From a virus: DNA of 64,000 nucleotides. Both the position numbers and the translations under genes were made by a program. Shown here one piece after another: positions 1,642 to 61,621 of the stretch; position 1 is the stretch's first letter, and each line of letters opens with the position of its first letter. Below the pieces are notes generated by a model, which worked only from the letters and a program-made list of their open reading frames with translations, was not told the DNA's origin and searched no databases. The stretch is from IMG/VR virus record IMGVR_UViG_3300035696_001556, positions 1-64,000 of that record; one strand, written 5' to 3'.

Positions 1642-2025
1642 ATGAAAATGAAGATACAATATAAACGTGAGCCAGACGGCTGTATACATGTTTTTGATGC
1701 TAAAGCCGGATCACAGATTAGGCAGATAGATAGTAATTTAAAAGTAGAGATTACGGATAGATATACTTTTGGAAGAGTGTACCCGAATGTCATAAATTTG
1801 GGAGAAAAAGCACCAACAAAACATAAGGCTTATCAACAATTAGCAAGTTTAGAGTTGAAATTAGCAAAGAGATTGCGATTACCTAATGTGACAGTCGTCA
1901 GAACTTTCCATGACATAAACTATAAAGAAGCTGTAGGCTATCCAAAAAAACCTCATTTTGTATATCATATCGAACGAGTTGTTTGTATATACGGAATAAA
2001 AGAAAATAAGACGTTAAAGCTGTAA
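1642..2025 (+). CDS. hypothetical protein
   Basis: ORF with aaggag RBS. Confidence 0.7.
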   Translation: MKMKIQYKREPDGCIHVFDAKAGSQIRQIDSNLKVEITDRYTFGRVYPNVINLGEKAPTKHKAYQQLASLELKLAKRLRLPNVTVVRTFHDINYKEAVGYPKKPHFVYHIERVVCIYGIKENKTLKL

Positions 2026-2040
2026 CTGCAGGAGGGCTGT

Positions 2041-2586
2041 ATGGAAAACGAAAATATAGAAGCTTTGGAAAAATTTCCTCAAGCTAACATATGTCCTGGA
2101 CCGCCAGTTGAGATTGAAAAGAAGCTTAAAGAATTGCGAGAAAATCTTCCAAATGGAGCAATCCTCGAAGATATACAAAACGACTGTCTTGGACAGATTG
2201 TTAAGATGGAGATGCGTAATCCACATGACTGGGTTGCCTATATCTTACAGCAGCTGGTAGAAGCTACACCCGAATGGCCTTTGAATCACGATATTTTTAG
2301 AAAAAAAATGATCCGTGTAGCTGCTTTAGCTATAAAAGCAATAGAATGGATAGACAAAGATCAAAAGAAAGCCGATAAGTTAGAGAATGAGATAAAAGTT
2401 CAGTCGGATAGTAATCCTTACGAGATTGCTCTTGAGGTTCTTGAGAAATATCTCAAGACCCACGATATGTACTCGTCCGATGAGTGTGATTACAGGTTTT
2501 GGTGTTTAGAGCAACTCAACACAATTAAAGAGAGAAAAAGAAAATTAAATGTTTCCAACAATAGTGTGCCTCTGTGGATCGACTAG
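2041..2586 (+). CDS. hypothetical protein
   Basis: ORF with ggagg RBS. Confidence 0.7.
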   Translation: MENENIEALEKFPQANICPGPPVEIEKKLKELRENLPNGAILEDIQNDCLGQIVKMEMRNPHDWVAYILQQLVEATPEWPLNHDIFRKKMIRVAALAIKAIEWIDKDQKKADKLENEIKVQSDSNPYEIALEVLEKYLKTHDMYSSDECDYRFWCLEQLNTIKERKRKLNVSNNSVPLWID

Positions 2587-2890
2587 ATTTTTCAAGGAGT
2601 TTATGCTAGCCAACTATCAAGAGACGATGGCTGGCCGTATAGTTCTGTCTGTTGGGTTCTTTCCGCACTCTTCCGAAGAAGCCCACGGAGAGCATATTGG
2701 TATTACACCAGAACAAAAGATTCAGTTGGACGAACTCCATAAAAGGAAAATAGACTTGGCGGATGAGATCCTAGTACTTAATGTCGGTGGGTACATAGGT
2801 GAATCTACCCTTAGTGAAATAGCTTATGCTATTACAAAAGGGAAATGTATACGGTATTTGGAATCTCACGAAAAGAATCCTAGTTTATAA
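2549..2890 (+). CDS. Conserved phage protein, nucleoside-deoxyribosyltransferase/DUF4406-like fold
   Basis: IVCLCGSTRF...HKRKIDLADEILVLNVGGYIGESTLSEIAYA pattern. Confidence 0.65.
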   Translation: MFPTIVCLCGSTRFFKEFMLANYQETMAGRIVLSVGFFPHSSEEAHGEHIGITPEQKIQLDELHKRKIDLADEILVLNVGGYIGESTLSEIAYAITKGKCIRYLESHEKNPSL

Positions 2891-2901
2891 TAGGAGGTGT
2901 T

Positions 2902-3321
2902 ATGAAAGATTTTACCCTCATGGAAGCAGAAAAATATTTGAAAGAAACCATATCCCCCGAGCATCTATATATCACCCATCTTGTTATTGGATGGCTTCCT
3001 ATTTTTAGCATGCACCACCCTAAGAAAGACCTTATTTTAATAGGAAAACTCTCGAAGTTTATTCCAGCTAAATATGACAGCCATGGGAACGGGCACGGAC
3101 CTGAGGTAGTGTTGCAAATGCTTCACGATCTGCCTTGTCTCTTGCGCTCTATTAAAAGTAAAACGAAGCATTTAAGAAAGAAGTGGACAGCTTATATAGA
3201 GTTTTACAGTTGGCCTGATCTTAATGCTTCTGCCGGTCTTGTCTATATGTCGGCATGCATACACAAAGGGATGAACTCGAAAGATATAAGAAGGGATTTA
3301 AAAATTCATGGAGGATTCTAA
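2902..3321 (+). CDS. hypothetical protein
   Basis: aggagg RBS, 139-aa ORF. Confidence 0.7.
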   Translation: MKDFTLMEAEKYLKETISPEHLYITHLVIGWLPIFSMHHPKKDLILIGKLSKFIPAKYDSHGNGHGPEVVLQMLHDLPCLLRSIKSKTKHLRKKWTAYIEFYSWPDLNASAGLVYMSACIHKGMNSKDIRRDLKIHGGF

Positions 3322-5304: not shown

Positions 5305-6501
5305 ATGCATAAATTAGCTCATTCTATTCGCCTTAACCCAACCAATACCCAGGAGACTTTCTTTAAAAAGGCTTGTGGCGTAGCTCGGGTAGCCTATAAT
5401 TATGGCCTCTCCGAGTACCAGAAAAAAAGAGCTTCTGGTGGAAAACCTGATATTTTAGAAATCAAAAAGCAGTCTAACCGAGAGAAAAAGACTTTGTTTC
5501 CTTGGATGTCCGAGACTAACAAAGACGCAAATCAACAACCCTTTGCGCATTTACAAGATGCCTTTTCTCGGTTTTTTAATCATCAAAACAGATATCCCAA
5601 ATTTAAAAAAAAGGGCAAAAAAGACTCCTTCTATATTTCTAATGACAAATTCGATGTGGAGGGAAACAAATTCTGGGTACCCAAACTGGGATGGGTCAAG
5701 GGAACAGAAGAATTGCGCTTCAAGGGAAAAATAACTTCAGCAGTTATCCGTAGAAAAGCTAATTATTGGTTCGTGGTAGTCAGTGTTGAAACCGACCAAG
5801 CATTTACGACTTGCGAGAACCAAGCAGTTGTGGGTGTGGATCTCGGAATTAAAACTCTGGCTATGCTGTCTGACGGAAAGTTTGTGGAGTCTGTTGGTCC
5901 TCTTCGTGCTCGGCTAAAAAGATTAAAACGACTTCAGAGATGGGCTTCTCGAAAGCTTCTGGGATCATCTAATCAAAGAAAAGCGAATCAGAAAGTGGCT
6001 AAGATCCACTATGAGGTTGCCTGTCTGAGAAAAGATATCCTTGATAAACTTACAAAATATCTCTGTGAGAATTATCAGGTGATAGTAATTGAAGATTTAA
6101 ATGTGTCGGATATGATAAAGAATCATAATTTGGCACTTTCAATATCTGATTTAGGTTTTGGAGAATTTAGGAGACAGCTTGAATACAAATCTGTACTTCA
6201 CGGAAACACACTCATCATAACTGACAGGTGGTTCCCATCAAGTAAGATTTGCTCAGGATGTGGACACACAAAAAAGACTCTGTTGCTTTCAGAAAGAGAA
6301 TATATCTGTGAGAATTGCGGACAAGTTATAGATCGTGACTTGAATGCAGCCATAAATCTTAGAAACTACGGTCTAAAACAAATAGGGATGGCGTGTCCCG
6401 AATTAACGCCTGTAGACATGGAAGCTCTGGCTTATTCGTCAGCAATTGGGATAAGTGAAACTTCCGTGAATGAAACAGGAATCGTTAGTGCTCACATTTG
6501 A
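5305..6501 (+). CDS. tnpB: TnpB RNA-guided endonuclease (IS607-like, N-terminal HTH_OrfB)
   Basis: ACGVARVAYNYGL; RuvC motifs GVDLG, IEDLN, DRDLNAA; zinc finger CSGC/CENC. Confidence 0.95.
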   Translation: MHKLAHSIRLNPTNTQETFFKKACGVARVAYNYGLSEYQKKRASGGKPDILEIKKQSNREKKTLFPWMSETNKDANQQPFAHLQDAFSRFFNHQNRYPKFKKKGKKDSFYISNDKFDVEGNKFWVPKLGWVKGTEELRFKGKITSAVIRRKANYWFVVVSVETDQAFTTCENQAVVGVDLGIKTLAMLSDGKFVESVGPLRARLKRLKRLQRWASRKLLGSSNQRKANQKVAKIHYEVACLRKDILDKLTKYLCENYQVIVIEDLNVSDMIKNHNLALSISDLGFGEFRRQLEYKSVLHGNTLIITDRWFPSSKICSGCGHTKKTLLLSEREYICENCGQVIDRDLNAAINLRNYGLKQIGMACPELTPVDMEALAYSSAIGISETSVNETGIVSAHI

Positions 6502-12681: not shown

Positions 12682-13979
12682 GATCCTCCACGAGCGGAAA
12701 CCCACGGCTTTAGCCGTGGGAGGAAAGCGAGTATCTATCCTCGGCTATTCCCTTGGTGTAATACTCTATGCATATAATTTCCTTAATATATGAACCTAAT
12801 CAGATCAATATCCGTCAAGCTAAATGTCCCTTTAGGGGACGGCTTGCTCGACACTTTTAAAACCTACACCAAAGCCTATAATACTGTTTGTAAAATAGGC
12901 TGGGACTCTAAAGAATTTAATGGCGTCAGACTTCATTTTTTATCTTATCCTTTAATCCGTGAATCTCTCCCGGCTCAGCTTGCTATATCCGTAAGGATGA
13001 AAGCTACTGAGTCTCTTAAATCAGCCAAAACTAGATTAAAACAAAAGAAAAAAGTATCCTGTCCTAAATCTAATTTGTCCTCTATAAGGTTAGACGCAAA
13101 CTCCTACAATGTCTGGTTTGATAAGAACGAAATTTCTGTCCTCACTATACACGGTCGAAAAAGATTCAAGTTCCAATCCTACGAGTATCTTGAACAATTT
13201 TTGGATTGGAAAAGAAAATCGGCTGACTTGATTTATAATAAAGGAAAAATACTCCTTACTTTTATATTCGAAAAAACTGTCCCAGATAATCAAATCACGT
13301 CTGACACCTTTGTCGGTGTTGACAGGGGTATCAGACGTATTGCTGTTACTAGTAATCAATTGTTTTTTGGAGGAGGAAGAGTCAAAGCTGTCTCTAATAG
13401 GTATCAAAAACGAAGAGCTAATTATCAGTCTTGTGGGACTCGCTCTGCGAAAAGACACCTTCGTGTAATTTCCAAGAAGGAGAACCGTTTTCGAAGGGAT
13501 GAGAACCATTGTATATCTAAAAAGATAGTTGAGAGTCTTCCTGCTGGATCTACTATAGTACTTGAGGACCTCAAGTATATTCGAGAGAGGTGTAAACACA
13601 CAAAAGATCAGAGGGGTGAATTTCACAGTTGGTCTTTCTATCAGTTGGAGCAGTTTATCATATACAAAGCTATTGCCAAAGGCATTAGCGTTGTGTATGT
13701 CGATCCCCGGTATACTTCTCAAAAATGTTCTAAGTGTGGTCATATCAGTAGATCCAATCGAAAAAATCAGACTCAGTTTAAGTGTACAAAATGTGGTTAC
13801 ACTTTAAATGCTGATTTAAACGCCTCCATTAACATCAAAAATAATTACTTGGACTCTAAAGGATATCCAAGTAGGGCTCCAGTCAATGAGCCTATTGTAT
13901 CAGATATGACAGTGCGCGAAAGCGCTTTGTCGTATACCCGCTAGATACAAGCCCCCGACTTTAGTCGGGGGTAGTTGAC
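12682..13979 (+). mobile_element. IS605/IS1341-type non-autonomous element (tnpB only)
   Basis: Left hairpin cccacggctttagccgtggg (12701-12720) and right hairpin cccccgactttagtcggggg followed by tagttgac. The target motif TTCAT lies directly 5'. Confidence 0.9.
12790..13944 (+). CDS. tnpB: TnpB RNA-guided endonuclease
   Basis: RuvC motifs GVDRG, LEDL, NADLNAS; YTSQKCSKCG and CTKC zinc finger. Confidence 0.95.
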   Translation: MNLIRSISVKLNVPLGDGLLDTFKTYTKAYNTVCKIGWDSKEFNGVRLHFLSYPLIRESLPAQLAISVRMKATESLKSAKTRLKQKKKVSCPKSNLSSIRLDANSYNVWFDKNEISVLTIHGRKRFKFQSYEYLEQFLDWKRKSADLIYNKGKILLTFIFEKTVPDNQITSDTFVGVDRGIRRIAVTSNQLFFGGGRVKAVSNRYQKRRANYQSCGTRSAKRHLRVISKKENRFRRDENHCISKKIVESLPAGSTIVLEDLKYIRERCKHTKDQRGEFHSWSFYQLEQFIIYKAIAKGISVVYVDPRYTSQKCSKCGHISRSNRKNQTQFKCTKCGYTLNADLNASINIKNNYLDSKGYPSRAPVNEPIVSDMTVRESALSYTR

Positions 13980-51109: not shown

Positions 51110-51283
51110 ATGAAGCGTACAAACATACATCTGACGGAAGATGAGATTAAGAATCTCGACAAGATATCGGAGCGTTCGGAATTGAAAAAAGCTGAACTTA
51201 TCCGAAGAGCCGTTGATGATTTCATTGAGAATTATAAAATTTATGGTTTGACAATAAAAGGTATAACAGGAGTAGTGAGATGA
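51110..51283 (+). CDS. Ribbon-helix-helix (CopG-like) protein, 57 aa, not in the ORF track
   Basis: MKRTNIHLTEDEIKNLDKISERSELKKAELIRRAVDDFI...; ATGA-coupled to the glycosyltransferase gene. Confidence 0.8.
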   Translation: MKRTNIHLTEDEIKNLDKISERSELKKAELIRRAVDDFIENYKIYGLTIKGITGVVR

Positions 51284-54200
51284 CCACAGATAGTAAATTA
51301 CTTAGCCTGAATCTTATCGTAGGCCCCGGTGAAGAAAAGGAATTAAAGCGATGTTTAGAGTCTTGTAAAGGAGACCTCTTCGATGAGATTTGTGTCACGG
51401 TTGCTACTCCAGATCCAAGTGAATCCCTTACGGCTATAGCCCTCGAGTATACCACAAATGTTACCTATTTCAAATGGATAAAGGATTTCTCTGCCGCGAG
51501 AAATTTCAACTTTGCTCAATCACATTGTACACATGTGCTTTGGTTGGATGCAGACGACGTCATCAAGCCTGATAATTATCAAAAGCTTCTAGCGCTGAAA
51601 CCGTCCCTTGCTGGTTTCGATATTATTTTGCTTCCCTATGTCTATGCTCACGATGACAAAGATAACCCTGCAGTAGTTCTACCTAGAGAGCGTATAATCA
51701 AAAATTGTCCAGAGATTTCCTGGCACGATCCTATTCATGAATATTTGAACATGGAACCACAGTTCAAGATGAAAAAAGAAGAGAACATTTTCATAGACCA
51801 TTACAGGACAAAGCCATTTAATCCAAAAAGAAATTTAGACCTTTTAAAAATAGAATATGAGAAGCCTAACTGTTCCGCTAGGATAAAGTTCTATTATGGC
51901 AAAGAACTTGCGGATAACAACGAATGGGATGCAGCTGTTCCAGTCCTTGAGCAATTAATAAATTCCGGAGAGGGCTTCAGGGATAATCTGGTGATAGCAT
52001 GCATAAAATTGTCTAGATACTATCACACAAAGAAAAATTACAATGCTGCGAAAGCCATAGCTCTTAAAGGTATAAGTTTCAGTAACTGCTATGCAGAAAA
52101 CTATCTTCTTTTGGGAGATGTTTATTGGGAACAAAAAGACAGGGATAATGCGACAAAATATTATTTGGAAGCCATGACAAAGAAAGTTGGTACCGCAGGG
52201 ATGTCTCAAGAGGCAGATTATTATAGATTCCTACCGGCATGGAGACTGGCCCAGGTATACCGAGAAATGTATGACTTCAAAAAAGCTTTAAAATACTGCG
52301 ATATAGCGATAGAATGTAAGCCGGATTCGAAGGAGTTGAAAGATTATCGTAATGACCTGGTAAGAAGCTCTTCCGCAGTAAAAACAGATCTTGTTATTAA
52401 AGATGAGGTTGAAAAAGCTTTTGAGGATTTGGCTAAAAAAATGAATCTCCACATGGAAGTTGAAACTAACAACATAGAGTATGCTAAATTGAAGATCAGT
52501 AAAATAATGAAAATGAAAATTGCTTGGATGCTCCCTTCTCTAAATATGGCCGAGCCTTCTACAAGAATAAGAAGAATCAATATACATAAGTATTTTGAAA
52601 AAGTCGGGACAGAAAGTGTCATTGTCGATAATTATAGAGGAAAAAATATATATGAGTTAAGGAATAAAGTAGCTGATTCAGATGTGGTTATTTTTACAAT
52701 ATATGGTTTTGAAGAATTAGAGCTGATGAAATACTTCAAGTCTTTAGGTAAAAAAATAATTTTTGATTTCAATGAGGCTATTTTTGGATATCCACTGCAA
52801 CATGAGTGTTTTAATCAAACCGATGTCGTTGTTACATGTTCAACAGTCCTTGCAGAAATGACCGCCAAAAGCGGATACACTAAACCCATAGCAGTCATAA
52901 AAGATGCTGTGGAAGACACACCAGACAAGCCGTCTGCAGTTTATGAGAATAGATATGAGAAGCCTAAAGCACTTTACATAGGTATGGGAGGTAACAGCTT
53001 TCTCGCTTCGGAATATCTTAAGGATGCAATCGATAGGGCTGGATATGATTTGATAATGATAACTGAATGGGATAATGCTACCAAGAAATGGGACCTTAAT
53101 ACCTGGCCTAAAGATATGTGTGCCTGCGATGTGGTGCTATGCCCTCAAAGGGTGGACGTCCAGCCAGCTAAAAGTAATGTCAAGGTTACAACCGCTATGG
53201 ATCTTGGTATGCCGGTCATAGCTTCTCCTCTCCAAGCATACAAGGAAATTATCAAGGATGGAGAGAATGGGTTTCTGTGTGATAAACAAGAGGAGTGGTA
53301 TAACGCCCTTATTAAACTCAAGGATCCGGAACTCAGAAAAAAAATAGGATTGGCCGGTAAAAACTCTATAGATGAATATTCTTTGGAGAGTATCGCCAAC
53401 AACTGGAGGATGCTGCTGGAAACAGTAGTATATGGACGTGTAAAATCCGTAATAGACAAAGAGGAGATAAAAGAAAGCGAGACACCAGAAAAAGCAAGAG
53501 ATCAAGTAGATATTATAATCACAAACTACAATAATGTCGAGTATCTTAAACTATGTGTCAGTTCTATAATGATGAATACTCTCCACCCATTTAATCTGAT
53601 TATTTCTGATGCAGGTAGTGATAAAGAAACGTGGGATTATCTTAACAGCTTAAAAGGTGTCACCATTTTAGGTAAACAGGGAGAACGTAAAAATTTCTCC
53701 CAGACTTGTAACGCAGGCATAGGTCAATCTACGACCAAATATTTTGTCATAATGAATTCAGACTTGATAGTATCAAAATGCTGGTTAACTCCTCTCGTTG
53801 AGAAAATGAACGGCATTAACAGGTTGGCAGCTTGTGGAGTCCTATCTAATTGTGATAGGGGTTGGTTACATGGGGTGCCTGGAAAACCTACATATCCTAT
53901 GAAGCTTCCTAAAGCAGATATAGAATTAGTACCAGGAATGAAGTATGACCAGATTAAACCGCATCTAGATGAGCTATGTAGTTTCATGCAGGAATCTAAT
54001 AAAAATAATGCTGGAAAATATATAAAACAAGATTGGGTGGCGGCTTATTGCACGATTTTTGCAAAGAGCGCTTTAGAAGAAGTTGGATATTTTGATACTC
54101 AATTCAAAAACGGCTGTGAGGATCTCGATTTGTGCAGAAGATTAAGTAATTGCGGATATGAGATAGGTCAAGCTATAGACTCTTTTGTGTTTCACTTCGG

Positions 54201-56670
54201 AGGTGTCTCTAGAGGAGCCTATCAATCTGAAAATAGAGAGTCTTACGATAAAGAAGATCAAGAGAATCATTTAATGTTTCAGAGGAAGTGGGAAAGACAG
54301 AAAGTTGTAATCTGGACTGGTCCAGCATGGGAACCATGGTCGAAAAAAGAAGTAGATAAAGGGATGGCAGGGTCTGAGACTTGGGCAACTTATTTAGCTG
54401 AAGCTTTTGCTAGAAAAAATTATGAAGTTACTATCTATAATGATATCCCTGGGGATAAGAATGGCTATATTTTGGAGCCCGTAGAGGGACTCAATAATCC
54501 TGTAAAATACAGGGATCATACTAGATTTAATGAGGATATCCAGTTCCAATATGTGGATTATCTGATAAGCTCCAGAAGTCTTGAAGCCATAAAAGCGAAT
54601 GTACATACTCATCACAGATATGTCATGATCCACGATATTTGGATTTCGGGAGACCCTAATTTTGATATCATGTCCTGGAAGATTGATGGATATGCTTACT
54701 TAAGTGAATGGCACAAACAGTTTTTATTGCAGCACCATAAGATACCGGAAAATAAGATGTTTTTAACTGCTAATGGTGAAAATTTTAAAAATTATGAGGA
54801 TGTAGATAGCTATGTTAAAAAGAATCAAGCTGTCTACAGTTCGAGTCCGGACAGAGGACTTTACGAACTTTTAACTGTTTTGCCAGTAATAAGAGAAAGC
54901 GTGCCAGATTTTCAGATAGTTGTAGCATATGGTTTTTATAACTGGGAATCTATGTGCAAAGCTAGAAAAGATGAAAAAGGATTACAAGCTATAGCTACCA
55001 TAAAAAAAGCCATGGAGCAGCCAGGAGTAGTTTACGTGGATCGGATAGATAAAAAGACTTTGGCTAAATACCAGAAAGAATCTAAAGTTTGGTTGTATCC
55101 TACATGGTTTAGCGAAACACAGTGCTGCCTTCCTGGTACAAAAATTGTAACTAATAGTGGTTTAAAAAATATAGAAGATGTTACCTCAGAAGATTGTGTA
55201 TATACACATAAGGCTAATTATAAAAAAGTGTCTAAAGCCATGTCCAGAGAGGCAGATGAAGACATTTATGAGATAAAAGTAGAATATTTAAAAGACCCAT
55301 TAAGAGTAACTGGGGAACATCCTATTTATGTTCTACAAAAAAAGAATATAAAATGTTTGAGAATTAGTCATATGGTATGTACAAAGAGAGGGGATCATTG
55401 TAAAACTGATTTTTGTTATTCTAGCCATTATGGTAAAAAATATTATACACCAGGAGCTTGTAAAAATTTAATAGAGAACAAAAATCCTTGTTGGTTAAAA
55501 TCTTCAGAGTTGCATGAAAAAGATTATTTAATATATCCTATCAACAAACTAAACAAGGAATTGGAAGATTTCTCTAATTTTGTTGTTAGTGATAAGCTAA
55601 TTGATGGGGTTATCCGAACAAATAAAACAAAAAGGGGTAGGCCACACGGTATTGAAAATTTCACGATGAATGAAGACTTTTTGGAACTGTGTGGATGGTA
55701 TGTCTCTGAAGGCTGCTTCGATTCGATATCAAGAATCCATTTTGCCCTCAATAAAAAAGAAGAAAAAGAAGCAGTTTTTATAGAAACCCAACTTCAAAAA
55801 TTGAAGTTAAAAACAAAAAGATACTACGCGAAAGATACTAAATCTTTGAGCGTCTCCACTAGTTCCGTAGTGTTAGGTAGGTTTTTTGTGGATAATTTTG
55901 GTTCAGGTGCTGAAAACAAACATATACCTGAATGGATTAAAAATTTAGGACCACAATACCTTAAATACTTTTTGAAAGGTATACTAAAAGGTGATGGTAG
56001 TAAAAATGTTGGATGTACAGTTATTAACTCTGCTAGTGAAAATTTGATATATGATTTATTTGATATACTTTTGAAATTTAAATGTGTATCTTCTTTGGGT
56101 AATTTTGAAAAACCCAGACTTTATAAAATTAATGGAAAAGTTATGAGAGACTATACAGAAAAGTTAAAAGGGTATAGTCTGTCGTGCTCCATGTCACAAA
56201 ATCCAGAATTATTTAATTTTATTGGTTTTAAGGCTGTTGCGTCAAAAAAAATAAGTATTCACGGATTTTTTGACGAGGACAATGTTTATTTGCCTATTCG
56301 TAAAATATCAAAAAGTAGATATGTAGGTAAAGTCCACAATCTTGAGGTGAAAGAGGATAACTCCTATATTGCCAATGGTGTGACAGTTCATAACTGTATA
56401 ACCGCAACTACAGCTGGTTTGTCAAAATCTGCTATAGTTACTTCTAAATATGCCGGTTTAATTACCACTGTTGGAGATTCTGGCATACTTTTAGAGGGAA
56501 GCAGCACGTCTGCCGAGTATCTCAATAAATTCACTGAAGAAGCCATTAAACTTCTTAAAGACGAAGATTATAGAAGAACATGGGCTGAAAAGGCCTGGAA
56601 TAAGATGCAAATGTATTCTTGGGATAAAATAGCCAATGGATGGATAGAACAATTTAACAAGTTTAAATAA
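51280..56670 (+). CDS. Giant multi-domain glycosyltransferase (GT2-TPR-GT4-like-GT2-GT4-like) with intein
   Basis: DFSAARN, WLDADD, IHE; TPR helices; KSNVK...LGMPVIAS; DIIITNYN, MNSD, EDLDLC; GSE, SSPDRGL, YPTWFSET-CI. Confidence 0.88.
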   Translation: MTTDSKLLSLNLIVGPGEEKELKRCLESCKGDLFDEICVTVATPDPSESLTAIALEYTTNVTYFKWIKDFSAARNFNFAQSHCTHVLWLDADDVIKPDNYQKLLALKPSLAGFDIILLPYVYAHDDKDNPAVVLPRERIIKNCPEISWHDPIHEYLNMEPQFKMKKEENIFIDHYRTKPFNPKRNLDLLKIEYEKPNCSARIKFYYGKELADNNEWDAAVPVLEQLINSGEGFRDNLVIACIKLSRYYHTKKNYNAAKAIALKGISFSNCYAENYLLLGDVYWEQKDRDNATKYYLEAMTKKVGTAGMSQEADYYRFLPAWRLAQVYREMYDFKKALKYCDIAIECKPDSKELKDYRNDLVRSSSAVKTDLVIKDEVEKAFEDLAKKMNLHMEVETNNIEYAKLKISKIMKMKIAWMLPSLNMAEPSTRIRRINIHKYFEKVGTESVIVDNYRGKNIYELRNKVADSDVVIFTIYGFEELELMKYFKSLGKKIIFDFNEAIFGYPLQHECFNQTDVVVTCSTVLAEMTAKSGYTKPIAVIKDAVEDTPDKPSAVYENRYEKPKALYIGMGGNSFLASEYLKDAIDRAGYDLIMITEWDNATKKWDLNTWPKDMCACDVVLCPQRVDVQPAKSNVKVTTAMDLGMPVIASPLQAYKEIIKDGENGFLCDKQEEWYNALIKLKDPELRKKIGLAGKNSIDEYSLESIANNWRMLLETVVYGRVKSVIDKEEIKESETPEKARDQVDIIITNYNNVEYLKLCVSSIMMNTLHPFNLIISDAGSDKETWDYLNSLKGVTILGKQGERKNFSQTCNAGIGQSTTKYFVIMNSDLIVSKCWLTPLVEKMNGINRLAACGVLSNCDRGWLHGVPGKPTYPMKLPKADIELVPGMKYDQIKPHLDELCSFMQESNKNNAGKYIKQDWVAAYCTIFAKSALEEVGYFDTQFKNGCEDLDLCRRLSNCGYEIGQAIDSFVFHFGGVSRGAYQSENRESYDKEDQENHLMFQRKWERQKVVIWTGPAWEPWSKKEVDKGMAGSETWATYLAEAFARKNYEVTIYNDIPGDKNGYILEPVEGLNNPVKYRDHTRFNEDIQFQYVDYLISSRSLEAIKANVHTHHRYVMIHDIWISGDPNFDIMSWKIDGYAYLSEWHKQFLLQHHKIPENKMFLTANGENFKNYEDVDSYVKKNQAVYSSSPDRGLYELLTVLPVIRESVPDFQIVVAYGFYNWESMCKARKDEKGLQAIATIKKAMEQPGVVYVDRIDKKTLAKYQKESKVWLYPTWFSETQCCLPGTKIVTNSGLKNIEDVTSEDCVYTHKANYKKVSKAMSREADEDIYEIKVEYLKDPLRVTGEHPIYVLQKKNIKCLRISHMVCTKRGDHCKTDFCYSSHYGKKYYTPGACKNLIENKNPCWLKSSELHEKDYLIYPINKLNKELEDFSNFVVSDKLIDGVIRTNKTKRGRPHGIENFTMNEDFLELCGWYVSEGCFDSISRIHFALNKKEEKEAVFIETQLQKLKLKTKRYYAKDTKSLSVSTSSVVLGRFFVDNFGSGAENKHIPEWIKNLGPQYLKYFLKGILKGDGSKNVGCTVINSASENLIYDLFDILLKFKCVSSLGNFEKPRLYKINGKVMRDYTEKLKGYSLSCSMSQNPELFNFIGFKAVASKKISIHGFFDEDNVYLPIRKISKSRYVGKVHNLEVKEDNSYIANGVTVHNCITATTAGLSKSAIVTSKYAGLITTVGDSGILLEGSSTSAEYLNKFTEEAIKLLKDEDYRRTWAEKAWNKMQMYSWDKIANGWIEQFNKFK
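55123..56394 (+). mobile_element. Intein (424 aa) with LAGLIDADG endonuclease in the glycosyltransferase
   Basis: CCLPGT, TGEHP, CGWYVSEG, GILKGDG, VHNLEVKEDNSYIANGVTVHN|C; splicing restores ETQCITA. Confidence 0.92.
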
Positions 56671-58435: not shown

Positions 58436-58948
58436 ATGTTACGCGTATCCGCTATAGAGGCCGCTAAGTTAGTTGTAGCGGCTTCATTTGTTTTAAAAGA
58501 CGATGTCAAGTTCGAAGGATTCGATGATGTCGGTGAGACTGAATTGTCTCATACCGTTAATGTTCGCAAAAACGGTGAGATGTCCGAGTACGAACAAGAA
58601 TTCAATCAACTGGATATATGGGCTGATCTGTCTTTGGGATTTACCGGAGAACCGCCAAACAGTTATAGAGTGTTTAATTCCATGATAGTTGACTGGGTCG
58701 ATGAACATGAAGATGAACTTAAAAAAATAATAAATCCAAAGCTTATACCATTTTTGAAAGAAAAATTTCCAGATTTGGATGTGTCGGATCTTAAAGAAGA
58801 TTTTGATGATTATATTTTTGAAGACCAGGTAGATTATGTTGCGGGTATTGATGAAGAGGATGGAAGGCTTCATTTTTGTATTGAGATGGTATTAGACATT
58901 GAGAATGAGGATGATGATAAAAATTTTGATAAAAAAGAGGAATCATAA
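58436..58948 (+). CDS. Acidic hypothetical protein whose last ~42 codons are a recoded replacement tail
   Basis: The C terminus is homologous to the orphan fragment at 60197-60331. Confidence 0.8.
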   Translation: MLRVSAIEAAKLVVAASFVLKDDVKFEGFDDVGETELSHTVNVRKNGEMSEYEQEFNQLDIWADLSLGFTGEPPNSYRVFNSMIVDWVDEHEDELKKIINPKLIPFLKEKFPDLDVSDLKEDFDDYIFEDQVDYVAGIDEEDGRLHFCIEMVLDIENEDDDKNFDKKEES

Positions 58949-58962
58949 AAATAATTAATATT

Positions 58963-60183
58963 ATGATAAATCGAGGATATAGAGTAGAAATAAAACCCAA
59001 CAACAAACAAAAGACTTTATTAAATAAGGCTTTTGGCGTGGCTCGCTTTGCCTATAATTGGGGCTTAGCGAGGCGTATAGAACTCTACAAAAATGAAAAG
59101 AAATCTTTGTCTGCTATAGATCAACACAAAGAATTGTGTATTCTTAAAAAAGAACAATTTCCTTGGATGTATGAAGTTTCAAAATGCGTTCCCCAAGAGG
59201 CTTTAATAGACTTAGAGGATGCATATAATAAGTTTTATAAATCTAATAAAAATTTTAGGTATCCTAAATTCAAAACCAAACACAAATCAAAAGATTCTTT
59301 TAGAGTATCTTCTGGAAATTTTTATATAACTGAATCTTCTATAAAGATACCAAAAATAGGACAAATAAAACTAAAAGAAAAGAGATATATACCAACAGCA
59401 GGTATAAAGTATAACTCAATCACAGTATCTAAAGACGCAAATAAATATTTTGTGTCCGTCCAGTGTGAAGTAGAAACCCCAGGTGTTACTGAGAAAAAAG
59501 AAACAGTTCTGGGTATTGATTTGGGGATAAAAACTTTACTTGTTTGCTCAAACGGTGAAATTTTTGATAACCCCAAAACAACCTATAAATATGAGAAAAA
59601 ACTGGCTCATGCCCAGAAAAACTTCAGTAGAACTAAAAAAGGATCTAAAAACAGAACCAAAGCCAATTTGAAAGTTCAAAAAATATACAGAAAAATTAAA
59701 AATAGTCGCATGAATAATCTTCACAGAGCTACCAGTGCCGTGGTGAAAACCAAGCCAAGATACATAGTTCTTGAAGATTTAAATGTAAAGGGTATGACTA
59801 AGAATCATCATTTAGCTAAAGCTGTTTCAGATGGATCTTTTGGGGAAATCTATAGGCAATTTAAATATAAAGCTTTATGGTATGGTTCTGAGATCATTGA
59901 CGCAGATAGATTCTATCCTAGTTCCAAATTATGTAGAAAGTGTGGACAGATTAAGGATGATTTAACCCTAGAGGATAGAGTCTATACCTGTGAGTGTGGC
60001 CATACCGAAGACAGAGATTTAAATGCGTCTATTAATTTAGAGGAATATGGTTTGAATACCCTCAGTTCGAGGGGAATTAAAGCCTGTGGAGAAAGTGTAA
60101 GACTTTTAGATGCTATTGATCTAGAAGCAGTTTCTACGAACCAGGAAGAAAACAATACAACTAATTTAGTTAGTTGTATATAA
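58963..60183 (+). CDS. tnpB: TnpB RNA-guided endonuclease (IS607-like)
   Basis: AFGVARFAYNWGL; RuvC motifs GIDLG, LEDLN, DRDLNAS; CRKC/CECG. Confidence 0.95.
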   Translation: MINRGYRVEIKPNNKQKTLLNKAFGVARFAYNWGLARRIELYKNEKKSLSAIDQHKELCILKKEQFPWMYEVSKCVPQEALIDLEDAYNKFYKSNKNFRYPKFKTKHKSKDSFRVSSGNFYITESSIKIPKIGQIKLKEKRYIPTAGIKYNSITVSKDANKYFVSVQCEVETPGVTEKKETVLGIDLGIKTLLVCSNGEIFDNPKTTYKYEKKLAHAQKNFSRTKKGSKNRTKANLKVQKIYRKIKNSRMNNLHRATSAVVKTKPRYIVLEDLNVKGMTKNHHLAKAVSDGSFGEIYRQFKYKALWYGSEIIDADRFYPSSKLCRKCGQIKDDLTLEDRVYTCECGHTEDRDLNASINLEEYGLNTLSSRGIKACGESVRLLDAIDLEAVSTNQEENNTTNLVSCI

Positions 60184-60217
60184 GTTTTTCAGAACGGAGG
60201 ACCAGGTAGATTATATG
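60055..60217 (+). ncRNA. Putative omegaRNA (scaffold ending ...gtttttcagaacgg at 60197; guide 60198-60217)
   Basis: IS607-like right-end pattern (gcctgtggaga...caggaa...gtttt.cagaacgg) overlapping the tnpB 3' end; 5' boundary approximate. Confidence 0.7.
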
Positions 60218-60331
60218 CCTGGCATTGATGACGAGGATAATCGACTTCGTTTCTCTATAGAGTTGGTGTTAGATATCGAGGACGATGAAGTAGCACCAGG
60301 GGATAAAGAAGAGCCAAAAACTAAGGAGTAA
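60197..60331 (+). pseudogene. Displaced original 3' end of the 58436 gene
   Basis: Translates EDQVDYMPGIDDEDNRLRFSIELVLDIEDDEVAPGDKEEPKTKE*; 21 of the first 28 aa are identical to the tail starting at 58820. Confidence 0.88.
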
Positions 60332-60337
60332 AATACA

Positions 60338-61621
60338 ATGAGCTTTATTGGACAGGGATTAACAGGTTTATCTCTTTATGCCAGCGTCACAGGATTAGTT
60401 TCTGGATATACTGGATATGGCGAACACGGTCTTACTGGTTTTTTCTATACTGAAGATGGTTCAGATGTAGGGAATACTGGTCTGTGGCGTATTAAGGGTT
60501 CAAAAGTGGTATCTGGAGACTCCTTTGAAGTTACAGGAGTTTCTGCCGAATATGTCTCTTCGCTTACCATTACTAACGATGGTAATGGATCAGCAACAGG
60601 ACCTAGTGTTGTAATAGATGGTGTGGCAACTCCTATCCTTGCCGTTCCAAATACTAATTATCAGTTTGCGCAATGGCTAGGTATCAGCGGAGCTATGTCC
60701 TTCAGCAGTCCTACAGGAGCTTCTTCCAATGTTACAGTTACTGGTGGAGACGCCACAATAGAAGGTACTTTTAAGTACCTTACATATTCATTGACGATAA
60801 CTAATGATGGTCACGGATCAGCCACAGGTCCTAGTACTGTAAACAGTGGCGTAGCAACCCCTATTCTTGCTGTTCCCAACGCCAACTACAGCTTCGCACA
60901 ATGGTTAGGTATCAGTGGAACTTCAACTTTCAGCAATCCTACTGGTGCTTCTAGTAATGTGACGGTCGTTGGCGGAAATGCCACCATAGAAGCTACCTTC
61001 AATCATAACACATATCTTCTCACAATGGCCAATGACGGAAACGGTACAACCGTTCCGACTACTGAAATAGTCTGGTCTGCTACAGGTATTAATGTTCTCG
61101 GTGTCCCAAATCCTGGTTATAGCTTCAATCAATGGGGGGTCACTGGAGGTGTAGTCCTTAGTGGTGCCACTGGATCTTTTGCTGTTGCAACGCTTACTGG
61201 CAATGCTACAGTAACAGCTACTTTTAGTAACAACACGTACACACTGACTATGGCTAATGATGGAAACGGTACAACTGTTCCATCTGGGGCTACAGGAGTA
61301 TTGTCTCACACACCTTTTAATATTTCTGCAGAACCAAGTGCAGACTATGTATTCAGCAATTGGACAGTTGCAGGGGATGCAGTAGTAGCTTCTCCAACAT
61401 CAGTTGTGACTACAGTACAACTTATAGACAGTAGTGATACAGTTACAGCTCATTTCACATTTTCGCAAGCTCGTGAAGGTCCTAATTTTAATACCAGAGA
61501 TTGGGACAGATCAAAACCAGATTTCTTTCAGGCAAATCCATATGCAGGTCAAATAGCACAGATTTGGGATAATCCAAGAGACGGTGAACGTGTCGCAGAA
61601 GAACGTCAGTATCAAGAGTAA
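60338..61621 (+). CDS. Divergent InlB B-repeat (Flg_new-like) surface/virion protein
   Basis: Four ~75-aa repeats LT.TNDG.G......I.A.PN..Y.F..W...A.I.ATF. Confidence 0.75.
   Translation: MSFIGQGLTGLSLYASVTGLVSGYTGYGEHGLTGFFYTEDGSDVGNTGLWRIKGSKVVSGDSFEVTGVSAEYVSSLTITNDGNGSATGPSVVIDGVATPILAVPNTNYQFAQWLGISGAMSFSSPTGASSNVTVTGGDATIEGTFKYLTYSLTITNDGHGSATGPSTVNSGVATPILAVPNANYSFAQWLGISGTSTFSNPTGASSNVTVVGGNATIEATFNHNTYLLTMANDGNGTTVPTTEIVWSATGINVLGVPNPGYSFNQWGVTGGVVLSGATGSFAVATLTGNATVTATFSNNTYTLTMANDGNGTTVPSGATGVLSHTPFNISAEPSADYVFSNWTVAGDAVVASPTSVVTTVQLIDSSDTVTAHFTFSQAREGPNFNTRDWDRSKPDFFQANPYAGQIAQIWDNPRDGERVAEERQYQE

Follow-up and report, generated by a model that had tools for sequence, protein, structure and literature searches.

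How a tnpB gene lacking any transposase came to stand between two versions of the end of one phage gene, and whether this arrangement may serve the spread of tnpB between phages, are the questions raised by the locus described here. It lies in a window of 64,000 nucleotides, corresponding to bases 1-64000 of a 173-kb virus record, whose completeness is estimated at 37% by CheckV.

Anatomy of the locus

All features of the locus lie on the plus strand. The host gene (58436-58948, 170 aa) is conserved in large phages, where it is represented by 41-42 homologs, as well as by syntenic copies free of the cassette. It is now a hybrid: residue comparison and tree assign its native 5' part (58436-58756) to the same lineage, indicated as A, as the orphan tail found on the other side of tnpB, and its end (58817-58948) is a foreign replacement tail. 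The two parts are joined within the interval of the inferred left crossover (58757-58817, codons 108-128), directly upstream of the target; its limits are the last clear lineage-A residue, K108, and the first residue typical of a second lineage, indicated as F, namely F128. The stop codon of the host gene is followed, after only 14 bp, by tnpB (58963-60183), which encodes 406 aa and has the RuvC residues D186, E271 and D352 intact. The omegaRNA scaffold, which forms the right end of the element (60055-60197, the 5' limit being provisional), overlaps the 3' end of tnpB and ends in the GG core at 60196-60197; the predicted guide (60198-60217) directly follows. The orphan native tail extends from 60197 to 60331, with 44 codons open to their own stop. 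The downstream gene (60338-61621), featuring Flg_new_2 repeats, is found directly 3' of the host gene in cassette-free phages; its ribosome-binding site, AAGGAG (60323-60328), sits in the last codons of the orphan tail.

The orphan tail includes a 92-nt direct repeat of 58820-58911, 75% identical (blastn E 4.5e-12 in the genome), and shares with the resident tail 21 of 28 amino acids over E129-E156. The predicted guide matches the resident gene at 17 of 20 positions, in a protospacer-like site located at 58821-58840 (mismatches at positions 2, 18 and 20). The size of the gap, the 21/28 relationship and the 17/20 guide match had all been reported in a first-pass annotation, and were reproduced here. 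When compared with chance, the flank-versus-flank score was 115, against a maximum of 58 among 492 GC-matched mismatched pairs. The cassette is confirmed as a real feature, and its anatomy is well supported.

A possible sigma-70 promoter (58926-58955, 10 of 12 positions) overlaps the last codons of the replacement tail and, if used, would produce a nearly leaderless tnpB transcript; promoter-like sites are within chance counts (5 found, 8.2 expected), and this one is a lead only.

As to the host gene product, no match was found in Pfam, PHROG, PDB sequences or INPHARED. Structure models were evaluated both for the product itself (pLDDT 76) and for its homolog P0177 (pLDDT 92): Foldseek, VIA and Atlas searches with the two models gave no significant match (best Z 4.4). 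A tail-terminator-like identity, suggested by weak rows in a first structure search, disappeared when the better model was used. The family may be described as one of conserved acidic proteins of large phages, without significant match to the solved or predicted folds searched. In the structure model, the replacement tail supplies the last two predicted beta strands, so that truncation at this point would probably destroy the protein. Elsewhere in the window (51280-56670), a 1796-aa multi-domain glycosyltransferase contains an intein at about residues 1309-1705.

The empty site and the origin of the two tails

According to the first-pass annotation, alleles free of the cassette should read W-E-D, with a TGGG preceding the guide match, and should run directly into a tail of the orphan type. 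Both expectations hold in the cassette-free syntenic phages. The closest of these (L003 and L005, 84% identical at the amino acid level) have no tnpB: the gene runs directly into the Flg_new_2 gene, and its tail resembles the orphan. Tryptophan is found at position 128 in 39 of the 41 homologous sequences covering the site. Of 30 distinct DNA alleles, 28 have TGGG directly 5' of the sequence matching the guide; for one of them (L001) the match is complete (20/20). Tryptophan has a single codon, TGG, and the following glutamate codon starts with G: the TAM is therefore fixed by the protein, and only an amino acid change can remove TGGG. Such a change is found in the resident allele, where W128F turns the TAM position (58817-58820) into TTTG, lacking the G at -3, and one seed mismatch (position 2) is added; the loss of the naive TAM had been correctly anticipated. 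By analogy with the characterised IS607 TnpB (PMC10690162), we infer that the resident site is immune to its own TnpB. No self-target combining TGGG and the seed is present in the genome record. A 13/13 match to the guide seed is found at G000 C1:117494-117517, where it is preceded by CCGG, without the G at -3, and is probably due to chance.

The right end falls within W-E-D-Q-V-D-Y, the best conserved motif of the gene, at the GG of TGGG. An alignment of 11 scaffolds, conserved up to the sequence ...AACGG and divergent thereafter, sets this end at 60197, with the guide starting at 60198. The characterised IS607 TnpA integrates at GG/TGGG, with a strict requirement for GG, and its TnpB needs a TGGG TAM, of which the -3 G is most strictly read (PMC10690162). 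Because of the TGGG empty site, of this TGGG preference of the characterised enzymes and of a relative bearing tnpA (L008), the right junction is, as judged from its sequence, an IS607-type insertion. An unrelated tnpB (30% identical) is also found about 180 bp downstream of the stop of the 20/20 naive allele (L001:4001-5741).

The left side is different. No end repeat was seen and no left end preceded by TGGG is present: a coding replacement tail is found there instead. No serine transposase lies upstream of tnpB, and no Resolvase (PF00239) match was obtained in the 173-kb record, which is 37% complete. The reported absence of tnpA and of a recognisable left end is therefore upheld by the upstream genes, by the PF00239 search and by the search for repeats. 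A transposase copy acting in trans is possible. As deduced from the sequence, the replacement tail stands where the left end and the transposase were, eliminating the TAM and making the protein full-length again.

The two tails have different relatives. In its core, the orphan is identical to L003 at 27 of 29 residues and has a lineage-A ending; in the trees, both the 5' part and the orphan are found with P0002-5/P0007, while the resident tail groups with P0013/P0014, with weak support (80/66). Informative residues favour lineage A by 26:1 in positions 1-127 and by 5:0 in the orphan; in the resident tail, from 128 on, the F lineage is favoured by 3:1. The discordance between the resident tail on one side and the 5' part and the orphan on the other is significant (Fisher p=0.003, F128 itself being counted). 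In DNA, the 5' part is 67-69% identical to F-lineage alleles and the tail 77-78%, and a single difference from L075 is found in 27 nt around the target. The rise in identity and the informative sites indicate that no more than about 60 bp separate the start of the foreign segment from the target, a proximity predicted for homing co-conversion. The orphan, in turn, is by its sequence relationships the native end of the gene. It shows no decay, so that the arrangement is recent; constraint also acts on part of it, which contains the guide and the ribosome-binding site of the next gene.

The replacement tail had been described as recoded, a claim which must be withdrawn: synonymous differences between the tails affect 8 codons and non-synonymous ones another 8, and F alleles exist without any cassette (P0014 and the distant P0174). 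For these reasons the tail is best read as a natural allele captured from another phage lineage, not as a recoded copy. Cassette-free F128 alleles are found in L075, L266 and L267; they may belong to the type which donated the immune tail, or be the scars of earlier cassettes, lost by recombination between tails.

Two similar tails in direct orientation might also result from a simple duplication of the gene end in tandem, with tnpB inserted later and the copies then drifting apart. This explanation, to which we assign almost no probability, had been named in the first-pass annotation as one that, if seen in relatives, would refute its proposal. It is excluded: no cassette-free relative shows such a duplication. 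Moreover, the tails are 25% divergent, as are those of separate phage lineages; the orphan has no stop or frameshift, remains close to a working allele in the residues compared above, and begins exactly at the right end.

The nuclease and its RNA

TnpB matches the Pfam families HTH_OrfB, OrfB_IS605 and TNB. The three catalytic residues and four zinc cysteines, invariant in 45 relatives, are all present. Among NCBIfam models, the general guided_TnpB is passed, with scores below the cut-off for both IS607_TnpB (241 bits, cut-off 350) and IS200_TnpB (340, cut-off 425). The clade is a mix of copies linked to an IS607 tnpA, copies linked to an RHH gene and solo copies: L008, whose TnpB is 62% identical, has a complete IS607 tnpA, and among the nearest TnpBs (67-71%) some are linked to an RHH gene and others stand alone, at unrelated sites where tail duplication was not detected. 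In the two nearest relatives (L082 and L083, 70-71%), a 50-aa ribbon-helix-helix-like gene overlaps the start of tnpB, in place of tnpA.

The omegaRNA scaffold is the same as in the tnpA-bearing L008 and L254 and keeps a covarying 5-bp hairpin; the region 60030-60217 folds with a z of -3.5. Protein-free or truncated copies of the same scaffold, with intact right ends, are found in three viral contigs (L258, L261 and L263); tail duplication was not detected in L261 and L263. Two further TnpB genes are present in the window. One (5305-6501) features no tail duplication; the other (12790-13944) has hairpin ends of the IS200/IS605 type and, on visual inspection, seems to break an ORF that has not been repaired.

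Of 163 conserved columns, 14 are altered in the TnpB of the cassette, as compared with 6 in its closest relatives; three residues are also deleted near positions 93-97. On the basis of this comparison, some decay of the protein is possible. Its dN/dS relative to other TnpBs is about 0.1-0.15, but dS is saturated and the value is silent on the time elapsed since the cassette was formed.

Since IS607 IStrons with TGGG TAMs exist (PMC10690162), and the guide matches the resident gene at 17 of 20 positions, the locus might be an IStron, or might encode a nuclease-dead repressor of the TldR type, guided by RNA to the upstream gene. Either identity is highly improbable: Rfam finds no group I intron at E<=1, only 14 bp are available between the stop codon and tnpB, and the gene is complete without splicing; as to TldR, the catalytic residues are intact and the resident site has no TAM.

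A possible mode of spread

We consider it somewhat more probable than all other readings together that an IS607-derived tnpB-omegaRNA has been turned into a free-standing, RNA-guided, intronless homing or marker-exclusion cassette, whose immune tail is co-transferred. To judge from its sequence, the cassette looks like a natural element that cuts the rival copy and keeps the gene working. During co-infection, the nuclease would cut the naive allele of a sibling phage and spare its own, at 15-21 bp from the TAM, if the value determined for ISDra2 TnpB (PMC8612924) applies. Repair off the donor would rely on pairing in the long 5' homology of the gene on one side, and in the orphan tail on the other. 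Any product in which TGGG and the seed persist would be exposed to renewed cutting; the immune tail would therefore always travel with tnpB, and the gene would stay whole.

It had been proposed that the cassette adopts the tail of each recipient as its guide. For the seed this is unlikely: with a cut at the ISDra2 distance, the first 15 or so positions of the guide would be located between the TAM and the break, and would therefore come from the donor, not from the recipient. The guide seed would thus stay that of the donor, and targets would be limited to alleles having matching wobble bases. A full match to guide positions 1-12 is found in no more than 6 of 28 naive alleles; over these positions, the three naive alleles that are closest and syntenic have 3 mismatches each.

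The best guide matches (19-20/20) are found in distant phages (L001 and L002), with host proteins only 44-48% identical, too divergent for efficient recombination; phages of this kind would be cut without efficient copying, resulting in exclusion. They might suggest that TnpB is kept only as a weapon, cutting the gene of co-infecting phages with the cassette rarely transferred, and the killing of competitors by homing endonucleases has been described (PMC13565253). The matches come, however, from one related group and may stem from shared wobble bases; the guide, moreover, is no more than the native flank and bears no trace of retargeting. A role of this kind without copying is regarded as improbable, with roughly one chance in nine.

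A more serious competitor, although still an unlikely one, is a one-off repair. A transposase provided in trans would have inserted a non-autonomous IS607 element at TGGG, breaking the gene; a single recombination with a related phage would have provided a working tail and removed the left end, the F allele being selected against self-cutting, and tnpB would since have been inherited vertically, without spread. In agreement with it, the cassette copies are all identical, natural F alleles occur without cassette, few sampled alleles match the seed, the departures of TnpB from conserved columns are mildly raised, and solo, RHH-linked and protein-free derivatives of the element family are common in phage contigs. 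A single repair would account for the same anatomy, but predicts less well the position of the crossover, right at the target and not anywhere upstream, and the arrival of an allele of the rare immune type (2 of 41). The intact nuclease and scaffold and the independent recurrence of the layout also weigh against it. An origin by one-off repair is also compatible with later homing.

The distribution of the cassette was evaluated in several searches. Six further contigs contain it, all 100% identical to the window, and the five contigs with the orphan peptide are likewise identical. No second occupant of the site was found in viral, metagenome and genome contigs, with about 30 DNA alleles compared; a search for the DNA pattern of right end plus guide gave two matches, both unrelated, and a short-protein profile search for orphan tails revealed no second occupied allele. 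The cassette is known from one genetic background only; the crossover next to the target is suggestive of homing.

The first-pass annotation had also proposed a screen for tnpB loci whose 3' flank translates to a paralog of the upstream gene end. Among 166 TnpB loci, one independent second case was obtained, L111 (1745-3240 of IMGVR_UViG_3300035698_023615), in which a solo tnpB (1989-3152) follows a 51-aa cysteine-rich gene. The target gene is different and the TnpB is 42% identical to that of the window. A twin of the last codons of the gene is found directly after the apparent right end; it differs mostly at silent sites, and its mismatches fall early in the predicted guide. An empty allele of L111 was searched for and not found. 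Two other high scorers, L194 and L240, were discarded as GC-rich low-complexity matches. In 94 viral loci, solo tnpB is common: a tnpA607-like gene is found upstream in only 18.

Taken together, the homing reading is favoured by TGGG in 28/30 alleles and W128 in 39/41, by the cassette-free syntenic phages, the intact RuvC site and scaffold, the concordance of 5' part and orphan, the crossover at the target, the lack of a self-target with TGGG, and L111. Counted against it are the complete identity of all copies and the lack of a second occupied allele, the seed mismatches in the closest naive alleles, the column departures of TnpB, the frequency of solo tnpB and the 80/66 tree support.

A wider proposal, which we advance tentatively and hold less probable than its negation, is that phages repeatedly convert TnpB into transposase-free "home-and-rescue" drives, composed of an immune gene end, tnpB and omegaRNA. 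The displaced native end would act as guide template, and the targets would be conserved codon pairs hard-coding the TAM, such as W-E for TGGG. Recombination between the two tails could pop the cassette out, leaving an immune cassette-free allele and closing the homing life cycle.

Comparison with known systems

The closest likeness at the right end is to the IS607 TnpB of the C. botulinum CboIStron (PMC10690162): in both cases the right end is CGG at the GG core, TGGG is found at the empty junction and the guide derives from the right flank. IS607 TnpB cleaves where TGGG precedes a match to the guide, repair of the break then resulting in homing, and that of CboIStron can home in this way without TnpA (PMC10690162). 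Unlike CboIStron, the window has no tnpA, left end or intron: the gene is made whole in the DNA itself, by a foreign tail and not by splicing, and self-protection would rest not only on the insertion but also on W128F.

Spread into empty homologous sites, dependent on TnpB and independent of TnpA, is also a feature of the plasmid gene drive based on IS200/IS605 TnpB (PMC11870625), termed "non-restorative homing" (PMC13565253), to which the cassette is proposed to be similar. There the unit is an intact IS and the gene stays broken, whereas the unit in the window includes host coding sequence which mends the gene.

Free-standing homing endonucleases such as SegF, SegB and MobE of T4 (PMC2988022, PMC13565253) lie, like tnpB here, beside a conserved target, distinguish self from non-self by sequence differences and co-convert the flanks. 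As in such cases, the nuclease is found beside a conserved gene and is absent from syntenic relatives, and the resident recognition site differs. The T4 enzymes, however, are protein-guided and have no duplicated target end, while in the window an RNA guide is predicted to come from the displaced native end.

In layout, the locus resembles the mobile ORFs of fungal mitochondria (Allomyces atp6; Glomus atp6, atp9, cox2 and nad3; PMC3630166), where a foreign in-frame C-terminus, derived from another lineage, is followed by an endonuclease gene and by the displaced native C-terminus. Those elements encode LAGLIDADG or GIY-YIG enzymes and reside in organelles, with mobility shown for Allomyces; the window features a putatively RNA-guided RuvC enzyme in a phage, for which the displaced end would also provide the guide. 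No description of this layout for TnpB was found in the literature searched, which mostly leaves out subscription journals. The cassette lies outside the IS607, IStron, TldR and mitochondrial mobile-ORF families, as these are defined.

An engineered gene-drive design named "home-and-rescue" exists. If active, the cassette would be its natural counterpart, built from the ancestor of Cas12. It would also account for the persistence of solo tnpB within conserved phage genes in the absence of transposase or intron. The locus offers a ready-made test pair, in which both the target allele and the immune allele are natural. Activity of the cassette would join the homing of TnpB transposons with intronless or gene-hybrid homing, two processes treated separately in the literature searched.
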